Assembly (NCBI GenBank): GCA_035279665.1
Contig: DATEHI010000052.1
Span: 7,939-71,938 of the forward strand
DNA length: 64,000 nucleotides
From: Candidatus Dormiibacterota bacterium
GTDB lineage: Bacteria > Chloroflexota > Dormibacteria > CF-121
Direction: 5' to 3'
Under the pieces are notes generated by a model that did not search any database, was not told the DNA's origin, and was given only the letters and a program-made list of their open reading frames with translations. Position 1 is the stretch's first letter, and the number at the start of each line of letters is the position of its first letter. Made by a program: the position numbers and the translations under genes. Below are positions 1 through 35,107 of this stretch, in pieces.

Positions 1-1016
1 ATGATGTTCGGACATGCCAAACGGGCGACATCGCTCCGGGAAACGACGCGCACGGCACCAAGGAGACTCACGCGGCGCACACTGAAGTCGTCGACGACGG
101 TCCGGCGCCCATTCCGATAGCGCCAGTGAAAGGCGACAGCGGCGACGATGGTAGCAACCGTCGCCCCAAGGACGACCTCAGCGATGGGGCCTGGGGTGCG
201 CATACGCAAGACAAACGACGGCACCCCCAACCCGAGAGCGATCAGACCCACCCACCAGGGGCGCCTGGTCGGCATAGGATGCGGTCGGAGCGTAAACGGA
301 AGCGTCACCGACGGCTGCGGGCCTGCCGTCACCGAGGGCGTCTCGGCCGGCGGATCCTGCAGTAGCGCGTGGCGCAGCAGCGCCTCCTGCTCCGCGATGG
401 GTAGCGTCGTGTCAATCGCCACCAGCGACCCGACCGTAGCCTGTTTCTGGCCGCGCATGGTGATGAAGGTCGCCATCGCGATGATCAGCCCCAGCGTCGG
501 AATCAACACCGCGCCGAGACGCAGATCGCTCTGCTTATAGATGGGACTGTCCTTCGTCTCAATGCCGATGGCGCCCAGATACACCGCCGTGATCGCTCCC
601 TGGTAGAACTCCGCCTGAATTGGCGCCCCAACATGTAGCGCGTCCTCCTGTTGCCAGTTGGTCTTGGCCCAGGTCGACCTCGTGCCGTCCCGGAGCTGCA
701 GCGTCATGTCAGCGGTGTCGCCGGTCTTGCCGTGGGTGACGGAGAACTTGGCAAGCGTGCCCGTGACCGTCGTGTAGCAGGTAGCGGTGGTCACTGCGCC
801 GCGGCAGGGTGTTGCGTTGCGATAAGTCTGCACCGCGGCATCCAGCTCATTTGCGGCGACCAGTAAAGCGCTACCGCCAGCGCCGCCGGCTAGAGGGATC
901 CCAAGCAGAAACGACCAGTAAAGGACTCGCCCAATCGACAGCCGGCGCCTGGTTTTGCCGGAGGGCTGCTCGGTCGGCTCGACGAGGTTGAACATGCGGC
1001 TGTTTTGGAAACGCAT
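1..1016 (-). CDS. Hypothetical membrane protein, partial (3' end runs off window start)
   Basis: Hand translation of the minus strand from ATG at 1016..1014 gives an uninterrupted frame of about 339 codons to position 1 (MRFQNSRMFNLVEPTEQPSGKTRRRLSIGRVLYWSFLLGIPLAGG...WWVGLIALGLGVPSFVL...). It has several hydrophobic TM-like segments. It is absent from the ORF track only because no stop codon falls inside the window. All plus-strand ORFs here are short and Arg-rich. Confidence 0.5.
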   Translation of the reverse strand, partial: MRFQNSRMFNLVEPTEQPSGKTRRRLSIGRVLYWSFLLGIPLAGGAGGSALLVAANELDAAVQTYRNATPCRGAVTTATCYTTVTGTLAKFSVTHGKTGDTADMTLQLRDGTRSTWAKTNWQQEDALHVGAPIQAEFYQGAITAVYLGAIGIETKDSPIYKQSDLRLGAVLIPTLGLIIAMATFITMRGQKQATVGSLVAIDTTLPIAEQEALLRHALLQDPPAETPSVTAGPQPSVTLPFTLRPHPMPTRRPWWVGLIALGLGVPSFVLRMRTPGPIAEVVLGATVATIVAAVAFHWRYRNGRRTVVDDFSVRRVSLLGAVRVVSRSDVARLACPNI

Positions 1017-1107
1017 AGCCAGTGGTTTCCCTCCCCCTCTAGGGAGCGCAAGGCAGGGATTTCCGAATTGACAAACGAACGCATGTTCGCTAAACTAACA
1101 CAGAATT

Positions 1108-2523
1108 GTGGTAGATGCGGAACCGACCCTGCCGACGAGCGTCCACGTGGCGGACCTGTTGAGCGCCGTCGATCGGTTCCGCCGGCGCCCGAAAACCGAC
1201 CGGCAGCCCCAGGTGCTTGCCGCAGAACTGAAAGGGATCCGCCACGCGTCGGATCTCCTCGAGCTGGAGTTCTCGCAAACCGCGGCGGCCTTCAGCAAGA
1301 CGGAGGAATACGACGAGCAGGGGTCTGTGAGCCCCATCGATTGGATCCGTCATCAATGCCGGATGTCCAGTGGGGCGGTATGGAACAGTTTGGCGGTCGG
1401 CGAGCACCTCGATGACCTTCCGCGCAGCATCGAGGCGGTCGAGAGTGCGGAGATCGGTTACGCCCACCTGGCGCTCATGGCCCGAACCGCCGAATCCGTA
1501 CAGGGATCATCCACCGCCGCACCTTTCGAGGAGGATGGGTTACTCGACAAGGCCCGCGAGTACAGCGTCGGCCGGCTCTGGTACTTCTGTCATCACATGC
1601 GCCACGCCACAGACCCGGAGGAATTTACCGCCGAGCAGAGCCGCGCGACCGAGGCGCGCAGGTTAAAGATGAGCACCTACGAAGACGGCTCCCTGGCTAT
1701 CGAGGGCTGGATCGACTCGGTCGGTGGCGCCGTGGTTCGCAGCGCGCTCGAGCCGTTGGCTCAGCCGCATGGCGACCACGATGAGCGCGGCCGGGAACAC
1801 CGCAACGCGGACGCCTTCGTCGAGGTCTGCAGTCACGCACAAGACACTGGCGTGCTACCCCAACGTCCTCACCTTCAGGTAACGGCCTCGCTCGACACGC
1901 TCCGGGGACTGGCCGGCTCGCCTGCGGGTGACATGGAGTACTCGCTACCAGTGTCGTCGGCGACCGTACAACGCCTGGCGTGCGACGGCACGATCACCCG
2001 CGTCGTGCTGGCACCGGAGTCCGTCGTGATCGATGTCGGACGGGCGCGTCGCGTGGTCGCCGGGGCCATGCGTCGCGCGCTGAACGCCCGCGATGGTCAT
2101 TGCAAGTGGCCGCGGTGCGATCGGCCGGCGTCGTGGAGCGATGCCCACCACGTCGTCCACTGGACGAATGGCGGCGAGACCGATCTTGCGAACATGATCC
2201 TGTTGTGCCACCGACATCATTGGATGGCGCATGAGGGCGGTTGGCAACTGGTGCGAACGGCGGAGGGTGAGGTGCTGGCCGTGCCGCCTCGCCCACCCGG
2301 GCTGGCGCGCGTGGCAGACGTTGACGATCCCGTTGAGGCTGCTCGCCGGTTCGCGGAACAGTTGCGCATCGCGCGAAGCTTACGAACCGACTGGCCGCCT
2401 GGAAAACGTGCACCAGCCGACGACGCCGCGTGGGCCCGAGTCATGAACACGCACGATGCCGCGGGTCATCAGGCGAACCAGCGGTCGGACCTCGACCCCA
2501 GCCTCCCCGACCCCGCCGCCTGA
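1108..2523 (+). CDS. HNH endonuclease domain protein, DUF222 / REP13E12 repeat-family type
   Basis: C-terminal HNH motif HCKWPRCDRPASWSDAHHVVHWTNGGETDLANMILLCHRHHW. The N-terminal region resembles DUF222 as in mycobacterial 13E12-repeat proteins. GTG start at 1108. Confidence 0.85.
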   Translation: MVDAEPTLPTSVHVADLLSAVDRFRRRPKTDRQPQVLAAELKGIRHASDLLELEFSQTAAAFSKTEEYDEQGSVSPIDWIRHQCRMSSGAVWNSLAVGEHLDDLPRSIEAVESAEIGYAHLALMARTAESVQGSSTAAPFEEDGLLDKAREYSVGRLWYFCHHMRHATDPEEFTAEQSRATEARRLKMSTYEDGSLAIEGWIDSVGGAVVRSALEPLAQPHGDHDERGREHRNADAFVEVCSHAQDTGVLPQRPHLQVTASLDTLRGLAGSPAGDMEYSLPVSSATVQRLACDGTITRVVLAPESVVIDVGRARRVVAGAMRRALNARDGHCKWPRCDRPASWSDAHHVVHWTNGGETDLANMILLCHRHHWMAHEGGWQLVRTAEGEVLAVPPRPPGLARVADVDDPVEAARRFAEQLRIARSLRTDWPPGKRAPADDAAWARVMNTHDAAGHQANQRSDLDPSLPDPAA

Positions 2524-2832
2524 GGAATTGTTGACCCACCGCTAGGTTCGGCGCGTGCCGCAAGGAGCCGGTCCAGCTCGGCGACGTCGGCCAAGCAAGG
2601 GGCGAGGCGGTGCGGGTTCCCCTTCGTCGCGACGACCCGCCTTCGCAGGCGGCGAGGCGGCGCGGGTCGCCCTCCGGAGCGCCGCAGAGGGGTCGGGCCG
2701 CTTAACCAACGATCGACCCACTTCGGGGAATGGGATCTCGGCACGAACGGCGGAGGCGTTTACGCCGGCTAATCCGTAGCCGATTCAGGCTGAGCAGGCC
2801 GGCCCCTCGAGCAGTCCGGAGGGTGCGCCGCC

Positions 2833-2893
2833 GTTAGCCGCTTGCGAAAGTCGGCCTCGCCGACGTCAGCCGCTTGCGAAAGTCGGCCTCGCC
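2833..2893. repeat. Tandem direct repeat, 2 units of 29 bp (gtYagccgcttgcgaaagtcggcctcgcc) separated by 'gac', abutting the gltB stop codon
   Basis: Seen directly: unit 1 at 2833..2861, unit 2 at 2865..2893, one mismatch. The related GGCGAGGCG motif also occurs at 2601..2624 and 2651..2674 in the same 370-bp intergenic region. Confidence 0.7.
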
Positions 2894-7534
<4,641 letters not shown>

Positions 7535-7645: not shown

Positions 7646-8764
7646 TTACCCGAGACGCTCCTTCAGCCAGTCGGCCATCAGCGGCCGGTATTTGTACGCG
7701 ATGTTGTTGCAGACGTGGTTGCCATCCGGGTACATCACGAGCGTCGCGTTCGGCGCCTCGCGTGCAATCCGCTCCGCCTGCGCGGGCGGAAACAAGCCGT
7801 CGCGGGCGCCATGGATCACGAGTAGTGGTTGGGTGACCTTGTCGAGGACGCCCTCGAGGTTTAGCGTGTATGCCTTGCGCTTGGCCTCGGCCTCATCCGC
7901 CGATTTCGTGTAGAAGATGTAGCCGCCTTTGGTCAGTGGGTTGATCGCGTCCCAGCACTCTCCGAGGTTGTACGGCCCGGACAGTCCGACGACGGCAAGC
8001 AGCCGCCTTTCGTGCGCCGCCGCCCTGGGGCCGTAGATCGCACCCATGCTGATCCCCATCAGGCCGATCCGGTTCAAGTCGACGCCCAGGTCATGGCGCC
8101 GCTCGAGATCGTCGACCAGCGGCGTGATCACGGATTCCCAATTGACGCGAATCGGAAAATGCACCGAGTTCTCCGACTGGCCGGGGCCGTCGATAGTCAG
8201 GGTCGCCAGACCGCGCCGGAGGAACTCCTCCTCGATGGCGAACAGCTCCTCCTTCGAGGAGTCGAGTCCCGGTACGATGAGGATGAGCGGTGGCCGGCGC
8301 ACGTCGCGAGGACGACGCAAGTGCCCCGGGATGATGTGGCTCTCGAATGGGATCTCGAGGCGCTCCGCCGGCGGGTCCAGGTGTGGAAGCGTCTTGCCGT
8401 AGACCGAGACCGAACGGTCGCGGAGCTCGCCGTGGAGCGAGAGATCCTCGAACCAGAGGAACTTCCCGAGGTGATAGCACCAGGCCGCCCGCTGGTAGGC
8501 CGCGGTGGCCGACACCATGCGCTCGTGCTGCTCGGCTTCGCGGCCGAGCGCCTCGTGCACCTCACCGACCGCCCGCCAGTTCGGGCCCCAGTCCTTCCAC
8601 TCCGTCGTCTTCCCCACGATCGTGTCGAAGTCGTTGACATCGATGCCGTTGGCCACGAAGCGCGCCCGCCAGTGATGGGCGGCGACCTGGACCCGGTTGC
8701 TCGGTAGATCTCCCTCCCCCCTTGTGGGGGAGGGTCGCGGTGGCGGGGTGGCGTGCACCGTCAT
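7646..8764 (-). CDS. Alpha/beta hydrolase fold protein (dienelactone hydrolase / S9-like)
   Basis: GISMG nucleophile elbow and alpha/beta-hydrolase core. The true start is most likely ATG at 8764..8762, overlapping the upstream gene's TGA (ATGA), not the longer 7646..8986 ORF. The first 25 codons are encoded by a palindromic repeat (PPPRPSPTRGEGD). Confidence 0.75.
   Translation of the reverse strand: MTVHATPPPRPSPTRGEGDLPSNRVQVAAHHWRARFVANGIDVNDFDTIVGKTTEWKDWGPNWRAVGEVHEALGREAEQHERMVSATAAYQRAAWCYHLGKFLWFEDLSLHGELRDRSVSVYGKTLPHLDPPAERLEIPFESHIIPGHLRRPRDVRRPPLILIVPGLDSSKEELFAIEEEFLRRGLATLTIDGPGQSENSVHFPIRVNWESVITPLVDDLERRHDLGVDLNRIGLMGISMGAIYGPRAAAHERRLLAVVGLSGPYNLGECWDAINPLTKGGYIFYTKSADEAEAKRKAYTLNLEGVLDKVTQPLLVIHGARDGLFPPAQAERIAREAPNATLVMYPDGNHVCNNIAYKYRPLMADWLKERLG
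8712..8750. repeat. Short GC-rich palindromic repeat, copy 1 (CCCTCCCCC-cttgt-GGGGGAGGG followed by G-rich tail)
   Basis: Perfect 9-bp inverted arms seen in sequence. A related copy lies at 35067..35098 and a weaker one at 1029..1059. Confidence 0.6.
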
Positions 8765-33875: not shown

Positions 33876-35107
33876 TGGAGGCCCGAGTACCGACACCGAC
33901 GGGCGACCGCGTGTTCATCTTCGATACCACCCTGCGCGACGGCGAGCAATCGCCCGGCGCGTCGCTGACGCCCGATCAGAAGCTCGCGATCGCCTGGCAA
34001 CTCGCTCGCCTGGGCGTCGACGTGATCGAGGCCGGCTTCCCCCTCTCCTCCCCCGGCGATTTTGAGGCGGTGCAACGGATCGCCCGGCAGATTCGAGGCC
34101 CGATGATCACCGCGCTGGCGCGTGCGGCCCGTCCTGACATCGATGCCGTGTGGCAGGCCGTCCAGGATGCCGAGAGAAAGCAGATCCACATGGTGCTCTC
34201 CGTGTCGGACATCCATATCGAGCGGAAGCTTCGCTCCAACCGGCGCGACGTGCTCCGCCGCGGCGTCGAGGCCGTTGCCTATGCGCGCTCGCTGTGCGAC
34301 GACGTCGAGTACTCACCGGAGGATGCGGGCCGCGCCGATCTCGCGTACCTCTTCGAAACGCTCGAGGCGGTGATCGACGCCGGCGCCACGGTCGTCAACA
34401 TTCCCGATACGACCGGTTACACGCTCCCCAACGAGTTCGGGGCGCTGATCGCATCGATCTGCGAGAACGTCCGCAACATCGACCGGGCCTTGATCAGCGT
34501 GCATTGCCACAACGATCTCGGCCTCTCGACCGCGAACAGTATCGCCGCCGTCCTGAATGGCGCTCGCCGGGTCGAGTGCACGATCAACGGCATCGGCGAG
34601 CGGGCCGGCAACGCCTCGCTCGAAGAAGTCGTGATGATCCTCCGCACCCGCGAGAAGTCACTCGGGCTGCGAACCGGGATCGACACCACGCGCCTGGCCG
34701 AGGTCAGCGCGCTGGTCTCGCGACACACCGGCATTCCGGTGCAGCCCAACAAGGCGGTGGTCGGCGGCAACGCTTTTGCGCACGCCTCCGGCATCCACCA
34801 GGACGGGGTCCTCAAGGACAAGCTGAATTACGAAATCATGCGGCCCGAAGAGGTCGGGATGGGAGAAAGCCGGATCGTGCTCTCGCCCCGCTCGGGACGG
34901 CACGCGTTCCAGTTCCGCCTGGGGGAGCTCGGGTATCACTTGTCGGAGGCGGACTTCGGAAGGGCCTGGGAGCTCTTCCTGGAGCTCGCCGACCGCAAGA
35001 AAGACATCCTCGATCGGGACCTGGAGGATATCGTGCGCCGCACACAGTCGCTGGTATCCTCGATTCCTCCCCCTCCGGGGGAGGGCAGGGTGGGGGTGAT
35101 CGCCTGA
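33875..35107 (+). CDS. 2-isopropylmalate synthase / (R)-citramalate synthase family, short form (about 410 aa, no C-terminal LeuA regulatory domain)
   Basis: [15 protein letters not shown] and [21 protein letters not shown] (DRE-TIM metallolyase). The gene ends after the catalytic and subdomain II regions. The C-terminal tail [13 protein letters not shown] is encoded by a palindromic repeat. ATG overlaps the ilvC stop. Confidence 0.85.
35067..35098. repeat. Short GC-rich palindromic repeat, copy 2 (CCCTCC-ggg-GGAGGG with G-rich tail)
   Basis: Seen directly. It is related to 8712..8750 and lies in-frame at the leuA 3' end immediately before the TGATG junction with ilvE. Confidence 0.55.

Follow-up and report, generated by a model that had tools for sequence, protein, structure and literature searches.

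The window analysed here is a 64-kb stretch of a Candidatus Dormiibacterota genome (contig DATEHI010000052.1), and its segment 1017-2893 holds a nuclease-type gene followed by repeat-rich non-coding DNA. The gene (1108..2523, + strand) starts with GTG and encodes a protein of 471 aa that combines a DUF222 domain (nt 1333-2094) with an HNH domain (nt 2113-2220). It converges with gltB (2894..7534, - strand; 1546 aa), which was identified with Pfam as the glutamate synthase large subunit gene and retains all four domains of that enzyme (GATase_2, Glu_syn_central, Glu_synthase and GXGXG). The two stop codons are separated by a 370-bp spacer (2524-2893) that contains the repeats, and the start codon of a divergent gene lies upstream, at 1014-1016. 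A sequence-only reading of this DNA had taken the whole segment for a mobile element of the REP13E12 type, the multi-copy repeat family of mycobacteria. Our results make it highly likely that the gene is instead a syntenic member of the 13E12 family controlled by a LexA box, that the spacer repeats belong to an independent structured element, and that the two do not form one mobile unit. The arrangement of two independent features side by side, a gene unit at 1064-2523 and a repeat region at 2595-2893, is in our judgement the probable one.

The DUF222-HNH gene and its predicted LexA operator

The assignment of the protein to the mycobacterial 13E12 family was borne out. Both domains scored over the curated Pfam cut-offs, DUF222 (PF02720) across residues 76-329 (E 2.6e-18) and HNH (PF01844) across residues 336-371 (E 7.7e-6), and the residues that bind zinc and carry out catalysis in the HNH motif (CxxC, HH, N and CxxHH) were invariant across 35 homologs. 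The nearest proteins, over 85 clusters at 75-94% identity, originate from soil metagenomes, and those that are named belong to metagenome-assembled genomes (MAGs) of Candidatus Dormibacteraeota or 'Chloroflexi'. Scanning one genome per species returned 38 loci, essentially all from Dormibacterota-type MAGs; individual loci are referred to below by L numbers. Contigs labelled Candidatus Binatus, Nitrosotalea, Nitrosopolaris and Eisenbacteria (L007, L027, L033, L036, L037, L038) bear DUF222/HNH genes of the Dormibacterota type and were probably mis-binned in their MAGs; one of these foreign-labelled contigs, L007, also shows the gltB synteny described below. The C-terminal tail (residues ~419-471, nt 2362-2523) was conserved only in closer relatives, of about 85% identity or more, and more distant orthologs end at ~425 aa with a stop codon that overlaps the gltB stop. 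At one locus, L012, an extended DUF222-HNH reading frame continues into a copy of the repeat element.

The AlphaFold2 model of the protein, built from a 35-sequence alignment, had a mean predicted local distance difference test score of 58.8 and was confident for residues 10-170 only, which form an N-terminal helical domain. Its best Foldseek match in the PDB was the helical domain of Noc/Spo0J, at a non-significant E of 0.48, and we therefore claim no fold-based function for the protein. Two other identities were set aside. The protein scored 15.4 bits against the NCBIfam guided_IscB model (cut-off 175), through the HNH motif only, and has no RuvC domain; and no PADLOC family of anti-phage defence systems matched at E up to 0.01.

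A sigma-70-type promoter (1068..1096, + strand; 10/12 matches in a promoter scan) is predicted directly upstream of the gene, with TTGACA at 1068-1073, a 17-nt spacer and TAAACT at 1091-1096. In Gram-positive bacteria and actinobacteria LexA recognises the palindrome CGAAC-N4-GTTCG, and an exact copy of this Cheo-type box, CGAAC-GCAT-GTTCG (CGAACGCATGTTCG; 1076..1089, + strand), lies between the -35 and -10 boxes. This is its sole exact occurrence in the 64-kb window. When the 5' flanks of 17 orthologous loci were aligned, a conserved promoter block emerged from otherwise unrelated upstream DNA, with the consensus TTGAC-A-N3-CGAAC-N4-GTTCG-N1-2-TA(A/G)ACT-N-A(C/T)ACA(A/G)AATTGTG(G/T)TAG. The promoter was kept in all 17 loci, even next to a different upstream gene, and blastn homology to loci with other upstream genes started sharply at window positions 1063-1068, at the -35 box. 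The LexA box occupied the same promoter position in every ortholog locus, and L012 alone had a second exact match, inside the gene. Paralogous DUF222/HNH genes showed the same box-in-promoter layout with 0 or 1 mismatch in the box core. The GTG start codon (1108) follows the -10 box by 11 nt and is not preceded by a Shine-Dalgarno sequence. It is overlapped by a further palindrome, CACAGAATTGTG (1099..1110, + strand), which is kept in all orthologs and replaced in the paralogs by the related motif ATGTGTGA; this palindrome may serve as an additional operator or be characteristic of a leaderless start. The first codons of the divergent gene contain, in inverted orientation, a 9-nt match to the right half of the LexA box (GAACATGCG vs CGCATGTTC, window 990-998 and 1080-1088), which could be due to chance or represent a second half-site.

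In Mycobacterium tuberculosis the LexA box is TCGAAC(N4)GTTCGA (Smollett et al.; PMC3381160), most 13E12 genes are bound by LexA, and the imuA/imuB cassette is counted in the core LexA regulon (PMC3381160). An imuA/imuB-type gene pair served as the in-phylum control for SOS regulation, in place of lexA and recA promoters; neither gene was detected in the window or the loci by tblastn with the E. coli proteins. In L018, from a Dormibacterota MAG, two genes stand behind the promoter TTGACT-AA-CGAACAGATGTTCG-ATAGTC, one RecA-like (ImuA-type; PF00154, E 5e-13) and one of the IMS/Y family (ImuB-type; PF00817, E 5e-18). This SOS mutagenesis cassette (3672-5634) and the DUF222-HNH gene have their operators arranged alike.

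Together, these observations suggest that the DUF222-HNH gene is probably SOS-induced via its LexA box. LexA bound to CGAACGCATGTTCG would block RNA polymerase; upon DNA damage, RecA would be activated, LexA would cleave itself and the gene would then be transcribed. The product, an HNH nuclease of the beta-beta-alpha-metal type, would nick or cut DNA that is probably recognised by the all-helical DUF222 domain. Three points temper this account. LexA binding, induction and nuclease activity are all predicted from the sequence; the part given to DUF222 in DNA recognition is a guess, the model being confident for residues 10-170 only; and the leaderless or nearly leaderless mRNA that the promoter would produce is suggested by spacing.

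Synteny was compared across 16 loci among L001-L017 (12 species representatives; L017 ends before the site) and 19 metagenome contigs. For every ortholog of at least 75% identity with sufficient locus length, gltB adjoined the gene and was convergent with it, so that the comparison proposed in the sequence-only reading placed the gene at gltB throughout. A single ortholog with 75% identity or more was found per species-representative genome, without exception at gltB, and homologs at 42-54% protein identity sat elsewhere in the genome. Altogether, about 30 lineages keep the gene with its promoter and operator, in each case convergent with gltB. The genes upstream of the orthologs varied. The stop-to-stop gap was -4 (overlapping stops, 6 loci), 4-82 bp or 305-401 bp. 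The ratio of nonsynonymous to synonymous substitution rates (dN/dS) was 0.06-0.15 against 10 orthologs, at dS values of 0.37-1.25. Within the 64-kb window the segment was single-copy by both tblastn and blastn. The DUF222-HNH gene of the window is a maintained, vertically inherited and fixed old copy that is not moving in this lineage. A mobile insertion, as suggested before, does not fit a segment that is single-copy in the window, lies at the same gltB locus in all relatives of at least 75% identity and lacks terminal repeats.

Elsewhere in the phylum, the gene occurs as a multi-copy unit. On CAVOMR010000002, a Dormibacterota MAG contig of 1 Mb, three copies of a 1.55-1.62-kb DNA repeat lie scattered, at 98-99% identity (L029 6797-8346, L031 6629-8178 and L034 6798-8350). 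Each contains an SOS box, a -10 box and a DUF222/HNH open reading frame, and the homology runs from the LexA box through 5 nt beyond the stop codon. Another Dormibacterota MAG, DASVEP01, has four copies with 84-94% identity, and the multiplied units of both MAGs are paralogous to the window gene. The multi-copy DUF222/HNH units of these relatives carry no repeats of the spacer type. The presence of multi-copy units in two MAGs indicates that the unit of operator plus nuclease gene duplicates or moves in the phylum, much like REP13E12. Given the 1.55-kb duplication, the DUF222-HNH family looks like a free-standing, SOS-triggered nuclease gene, either selfish or domesticated. The idea of a multi-copy 13E12-type element held for the phylum, where three near-identical copies share one contig; the window copy is single within the 64 kb and sits at gltB.

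A structured repeat element in the spacer next to gltB

The spacer DNA outside the repeat element (2524..2594) was common only to the closest relatives (L001, L002 and L114) in alignment. It is followed on the + strand by three repeat features. The first (2595..2640) is a solo truncated 5' arm of an older, subfamily-B-like element copy, recognisable as a direct repeat, with the first GGCGAGGCG at 2601. The second (2640..2851) is a complete element copy of subfamily A, delimited with nhmmer, in which 2645-2684 forms the closing stem with 2815-2845 and the apical hairpin GGCG-TTTA-CGCC lies at ~2755-2766. In the third (2826..2893), the 3' arm and tail of the element are duplicated as a 32-bp tandem repeat of 2.1 copies that includes two inverted GGCGAGGCC motifs. 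Tandem Repeats Finder gave this last feature a period of 32 and 94% matches and placed its end 1 nt before the gltB stop codon. An exact 26-mer, AGCCGCTTGCGAAAGTCGGCCTCGCC, occurs twice in it and nowhere else in the window. The tandem repeat noted earlier beside gltB is real, with a period of 32 bp and an exact core of 26 bp rather than 29 bp. A second direct repeat links 2595-2634 with 2645-2684 (78%, spacing 50).

The 370-bp gap and its four motif copies were likewise confirmed. The motif, GGCGAGGCS (GGCGAGGC), lies at 2601 and 2651 on the + strand and at 2853 and 2885 on the - strand, four copies in 293 bp compared with 16 on both strands of the whole 64-kb window. These copies are located in the 5' arms and, inverted, in the duplicated 3' tail, and thus in paired arms; in the minimum free energy fold of 2590-2896 the outermost motifs pair, the GGCGAGGCG of the solo arm with the last GCCTCGCC. 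The long spacers of closer relatives were homologous to that of the window. The solo 5' arm was common to L001, L009 and others, where a subfamily-B element comes after it, and the first 3' duplication was shared with five other lineages (L090, L099, L110, L111, L137). Duplications of the 3' arm with other periods were found in unrelated copies, such as L005 (40 bp, x2) and L009 (22 bp, x3), and also in L051, L071, L089, L109 and L130. A small protein encoded by the open reading frames of the spacer (2469..2744, - strand; 2555..2779, + strand) is unlikely, as element copies are separated by 1-2-nt indels.

Metagenome contigs were scanned with a 20-mer from the conserved spacer core, in the 3' arm. 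This returned 109 stretches, of which 19 were in DUF222/gltB context and ~30 had a match of 100-260 nt with neither gene near, the rest being chance matches. An nhmmer profile built from 39 distinct element copies detected exactly one copy in the window (2640-2851, E 9.8e-49). Ten or more other loci carry the element without the DUF222-HNH gene: four lineages have it between pheA and ppc, four contigs (two with identical sequence across the sampled region) have it between a PNPOx-like and an AsnC-type gene, and further copies adjoin ftsH (4), moaC (2), gpmI, pfkA, a gene of an opp operon and a LuxR-type regulator gene. About 20 of the 23 copies away from DUF222 lie in convergent gaps, where the same-strand gene ends 9-110 nt before the element and the opposite-strand gene ends 2-100 nt after it. 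Conversely, many relatives have the DUF222-HNH gene without the element, and there the stop codons overlap. The spacer repeats had been interpreted as element termini, an integration scar or a regulator-binding array; they are instead the arms of a separate ~210-nt element that is present at no fewer than 10 HNH-free loci.

Orthologous empty sites of the other element loci were searched for in the window and none was found. The 20-mer of the apical hairpin had one match among viral contigs, which was inside a coding region and was not the element. At the 3' end of what appears to be the same LuxR-type response-regulator gene, the element is in opposite orientations in L043 (83-283) and L047 (6063-6263), implying that the region was inverted or that the insertions were independent. 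The ppc gene of relatives is located 5-9 kb upstream of DUF222. L009 (1-1741) shows ppc alone, and in L050 and L089/L099 (one contig) the site itself is visible, with pheA and ppc converging on the element. Two element sites can thus lie close together, and in the source genome the pheA/ppc site would fall just beyond the left end of the window.

The element is predicted to fold into a long imperfect hairpin, with a closing stem of ~40-50 bp, two conserved internal loops and a branched tip that bears an invariant GGCG-UUUA-CGCC hairpin. RNAalifold predicted the long closing stem and the inner helices and identified 12 pairs with compensatory double changes. The model tested on the 39 copies had 53 pairs (P1a-d, P2, P3/P4 and the apical hairpin P5). 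In this model 89.7% of cells were paired, compared with 34-47% when the partners were slid by 1-3 columns. Double changes were present in 106 cells compared with 32.8 +/- 5.2 in shuffles, and the covariation score was 0.207 compared with 0.120; none of the 500 shuffles reached either value. Covariation was also evident by eye in the end pairs (GCAAGCGGC/GCCGCTTGC vs GCAGCCAGC/GCTGGCTGC vs GACCGCGGC/GCCGCGGTC) and the inner pairs (CCCTCCGGA/TCCGGAGGG vs CCCTTCGGC/GCCGAAGGG). The 5' arm, GCAAGCGGC-GAGG-CGGCGC...CCCTYCGGM, has ~40 nt of complementarity to the 3' arm (~50 nt in subfamily C). Conservation dropped to background at alignment columns 12/13 and 274/275, the ends of the stem, giving a core of 2645-2845 in the window. 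Inside this core the apical hairpin GAGGCG-UUUA-CGCCGGC was nearly invariant, and the outermost stem was less conserved and covaried; columns under the search 20-mer are conserved by construction. The window copy alone had a folding energy of -125 kcal/mol (z = -5.6). G-U pairs outnumbered A-C pairs (141 vs 62), and the consensus energy from alifold was -52.6 kcal/mol for the + strand compared with -45.2 for the - strand. Both measures moderately favour an RNA read in the sense of the HNH gene.

The element matched no RNA family in Rfam. Window positions 800-3200 had no Rfam match with E up to 1, and subfamilies B and C scored at chance level (naRNA4, 16.8 bits against a gathering threshold of 59.5, E = 1; Flavi_NKV_xrRNA, 14.7 against 50). 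An integron attC site was rejected for want of a GTTRRRY core and a hammerhead ribozyme for want of a CUGANGA...GAAA core; group II intron domain V, SRP RNA, 6S RNA and a dif-like site were also set aside on sequence grounds. We regard the element as a well-supported structured intergenic repeat family that has no Rfam match and of which a limited literature search found no description.

The copies form three subfamilies, A, B and C. The DUF222/gltB, pheA/ppc and PNPOx/AsnC sites each bear A or B depending on lineage, and the sole two-copy contig (L089, L099) has subfamily A at both sites. In the DUF222 gene tree, loci with A, with B and with no element were interspersed: the window (A) grouped with L001, L002 and L114 (B), and L128 and L095 (A) with L008, L100 and L085 (B). 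L006 and L007 had no element in the locus, and the only copy in L050 was 9 kb off, at pheA/ppc. The elements of the window and L001 were 64% identical, at a host-gene dS of 0.37. This interspersion and this low identity show that the element has been lost, regained or overwritten several times at the DUF222/gltB site.

Some features of the upstream side lie outside both the conserved gene block and the element. The divergent gene (window 1-1016, - strand) encodes at least 338 aa inside the window, with hydrophobic stretches recognisable by eye. It had no Pfam or NCBIfam match and adjoins DUF222 in only some relatives (L001, L002, L007, L011, L017). The divergent intergenic region carries a short hairpin repeat, CCCTCCCCC-N-GGGAG (1029..1046, + strand). 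The pattern CCCTCCCCC-N3-9-GGGRG had 7 overlapping matches at three window sites (1029-1046, 8712-8734 and 35067-35085) compared with 0.02 expected; the repeat itself reads CCCTCCCCC-N3-9-GGGGGAG(GG). The same short hairpin was present upstream of the DUF222 promoter in L001, L013 and L014 and occupies the DUF222/gltB gap in L011 (8855-8894). It looks like a hairpin of the REP or terminator type.

Possible roles of the element

Since the copies lie between convergent genes, either gene should transcribe the element as its 3' end. The RNA, for which the + strand is favoured, could then act as a structured 3' end, halting or buffering read-through from the convergent genes and shielding mRNA 3' ends. 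Copies would be spread or replaced through recombination or re-insertion among members of the family, and this turnover would leave behind solo arms and tandem duplications of arms. We tentatively favour such a transcribed 3'-end structure as the leading possibility among several that are each individually less likely.

Several observations weigh against it. The strand preference is just ~2.3 to 1. A terminator scan of the spacer found no terminator-like site, U-tract or other hallmark. Any host function would be dispensable, since relatives do well with overlapping stops and no element. In ~450 kb of related MAG loci, nhmmer found no further copies outside DUF222/gltB spacers. Finally, the 20-mer used to find copies inflates the conservation of the 3' arm and hides divergent members.

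The main rival is a purely selfish element, a MITE or REPIN-like non-autonomous transposon with no host function whose insertions in convergent gaps are harmless. We rate this as a distinctly weaker but serious candidate. The ends are imperfect inverted repeats of ~40-50 nt, copies are dispersed over many loci, both presence and subfamily vary at a single site, nested or solo arms suggest repeated insertions, and the orientations at the orthologous LuxR-type gene of L043 and L047 differ. Against this, no target-site duplication was recognised when the flanks of the 39 copies were inspected, where partial arms at both ends obscure the junctions, and no autonomous parent was seen in the loci examined. 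Copy density is low, with one copy in 64 kb and none elsewhere in the ~450 kb of related loci. Conservation is lower at the covarying ends than in the internal loops and apical hairpin, whereas terminal repeats bound by a transposase show the reverse. Copies at orthologous sites are 78-90% identical although the neighbouring gene has a dS of 0.7-1.2, near saturation, and helix pairing is kept via compensatory changes and G-U pairs.

The same covariation, together with the invariant GAGGCG-UUUA-CGCCGGC hairpin and internal-loop bases, the low copy number and the favoured + strand, would also suit a family of independent trans-acting small RNA genes or a protein-sponging RNA. This is improbable, because there is no room for a conserved promoter (often just 9-26 nt separate the end of the upstream gene from the element, and the flanking sequences are unrelated), the element has no terminator-like tail, and restriction to convergent gaps is unexpected for a free-standing small RNA gene. 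More speculative still, the copies could be a new class of functional structured nucleic acid that is recognised in trans and overwritten by homing-like gene conversion, with SOS-induced DUF222-HNH nucleases, one of them encoded directly beside a copy here, supplying the breaks. We give this idea little credence; if true, it would explain the swaps between A and B at the same sites despite vertically inherited flanking genes, and it would give the 13E12 nuclease family its first proposed substrate.

Positive supercoils build up between convergent genes, and REP/BIME elements sit there. The four GGCGAGGC motifs in 293 bp and their location in a convergent gap would accordingly be compatible with a BIME/REP-like DNA-level binding array for a regulator or a nucleoid- or gyrase-type protein, to which we assign only a marginal probability: GAGG/CCUC (columns 25-28 and 261-264) is among the less-kept parts of the 39 copies and varies as paired bases do and not like a set word, two of the four motifs lie in lineage-specific duplications, and the excess of G-U over A-C pairs points to RNA. 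Equally marginal is the original proposal that 1017-2893 as a whole is one REP13E12-like mobile element, with the repeats representing its ends, the scar of an integration or an attachment site for a phage. The protein family fits, relatives have truly multi-copy DUF222/HNH repeats, and 13E12 elements of M. tuberculosis carry a phage attachment site (PMC3381160), but all orthologous loci have the gene at one and the same site whether or not the repeats are present, the repeats are part of an element that also occupies at least 10 loci without the gene, and the multi-copy units of relatives end 5 nt past the stop codon without such repeats. Moreover, conservation starts on the left at the promoter, this edge has no matching repeat on the right, and neither the window nor the relatives have integrase or prophage genes next to the locus.

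Relation to known systems and significance

The 13E12 genes of M. tuberculosis (e.g. Rv0336, Rv0515, Rv1702c) encode the same pair of DUF222 and HNH domains, and the promoter control by a Gram-positive-type LexA box is the same as that predicted for the window gene. In some genomes, 13E12 forms multi-copy DNA repeats of ~1.5 kb, as the unit does in some Dormibacterota. In contrast to M. tuberculosis 13E12, the window copy belongs to a Dormibacterota host and is single, syntenic and under strong purifying selection rather than a recent repeat. Its locus shows no sign of a phage attachment site or prophage, and its homologs within Dormibacterota share 42-54% protein identity with it, as paralogs rather than DNA repeats of the window copy. 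The perfect palindrome between the -35 and -10 boxes is shared with LexA/SOS regulon genes that carry the Cheo-type operator (CGAAC-N4-GTTCG), among them the imuA-imuB-dnaE2 cassette, although the window gene encodes a predicted nuclease rather than a repair or mutagenesis enzyme. Homing endonuclease genes of the free-standing HNH kind have the same minimal mobile unit, an HNH gene with its own promoter, duplicated here precisely from operator to stop in a relative. Unlike in those systems, neither a target site nor an intron or intein setting nor any homing event is documented for the gene, the window copy has long been immobile, and DUF222 is not a known DNA-binding module of homing endonucleases. 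IscB with its HEARO/omega RNA likewise places an HNH gene beside a ~200-nt structured RNA-like element, but the window protein has no RuvC domain, the element has no Rfam HEARO match, and most element copies have no HNH gene at all.

ERIC/IRU sequences of enterobacteria are imperfect palindromes of ~127 bp in transcribed intergenic DNA, better conserved than neutral DNA and with no known transposase. The element resembles them in these last two respects and in being interspersed, confined to intergenic DNA, present or absent by lineage and folded as a long imperfect hairpin when transcribed. It differs in having no sequence similarity to them, a length of ~210 nt, a branched conserved tip, three mutually replacing subfamilies and an almost constant location in convergent gaps. 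With REP/BIME/REPIN sequences and Correia-type MITEs it shares inverted-repeat ends, dispersal, a preference for the 3' side of genes and tandem or partial copies. REP units, however, are 20-40 nt long, whereas the element has ~210 nt with a conserved branched centre, its termini are the least conserved paired part, and its copy number is low. In contrast to REPINs and MITEs, no RAYT or transposase partner turned up, in searches not aimed at RAYT, and no target-site duplication was recognised.

In annotation, the repeats beside gltB should not be labelled as part of an HNH mobile element. Proteins of the 13E12 family are prominent in the LexA regulon of M. tuberculosis, where they mark inversion breakpoints, and we know of no established function for them. 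A nuclease gene of this LexA-box, 13E12-type kind, known before, is now found in a new phylum. The unit of operator and gene, fixed in one case and freshly triplicated in another in a distant, uncultured phylum, shows that the link between 13E12 and the SOS response is ancient, and the edges of the triplicated repeats, at the LexA box and the stop codon, define the minimal unit. The element is a candidate new RNA motif and, for a phylum from which we know of no transcript-level data, could inform how transcripts are ended or protected in Dormibacterota.

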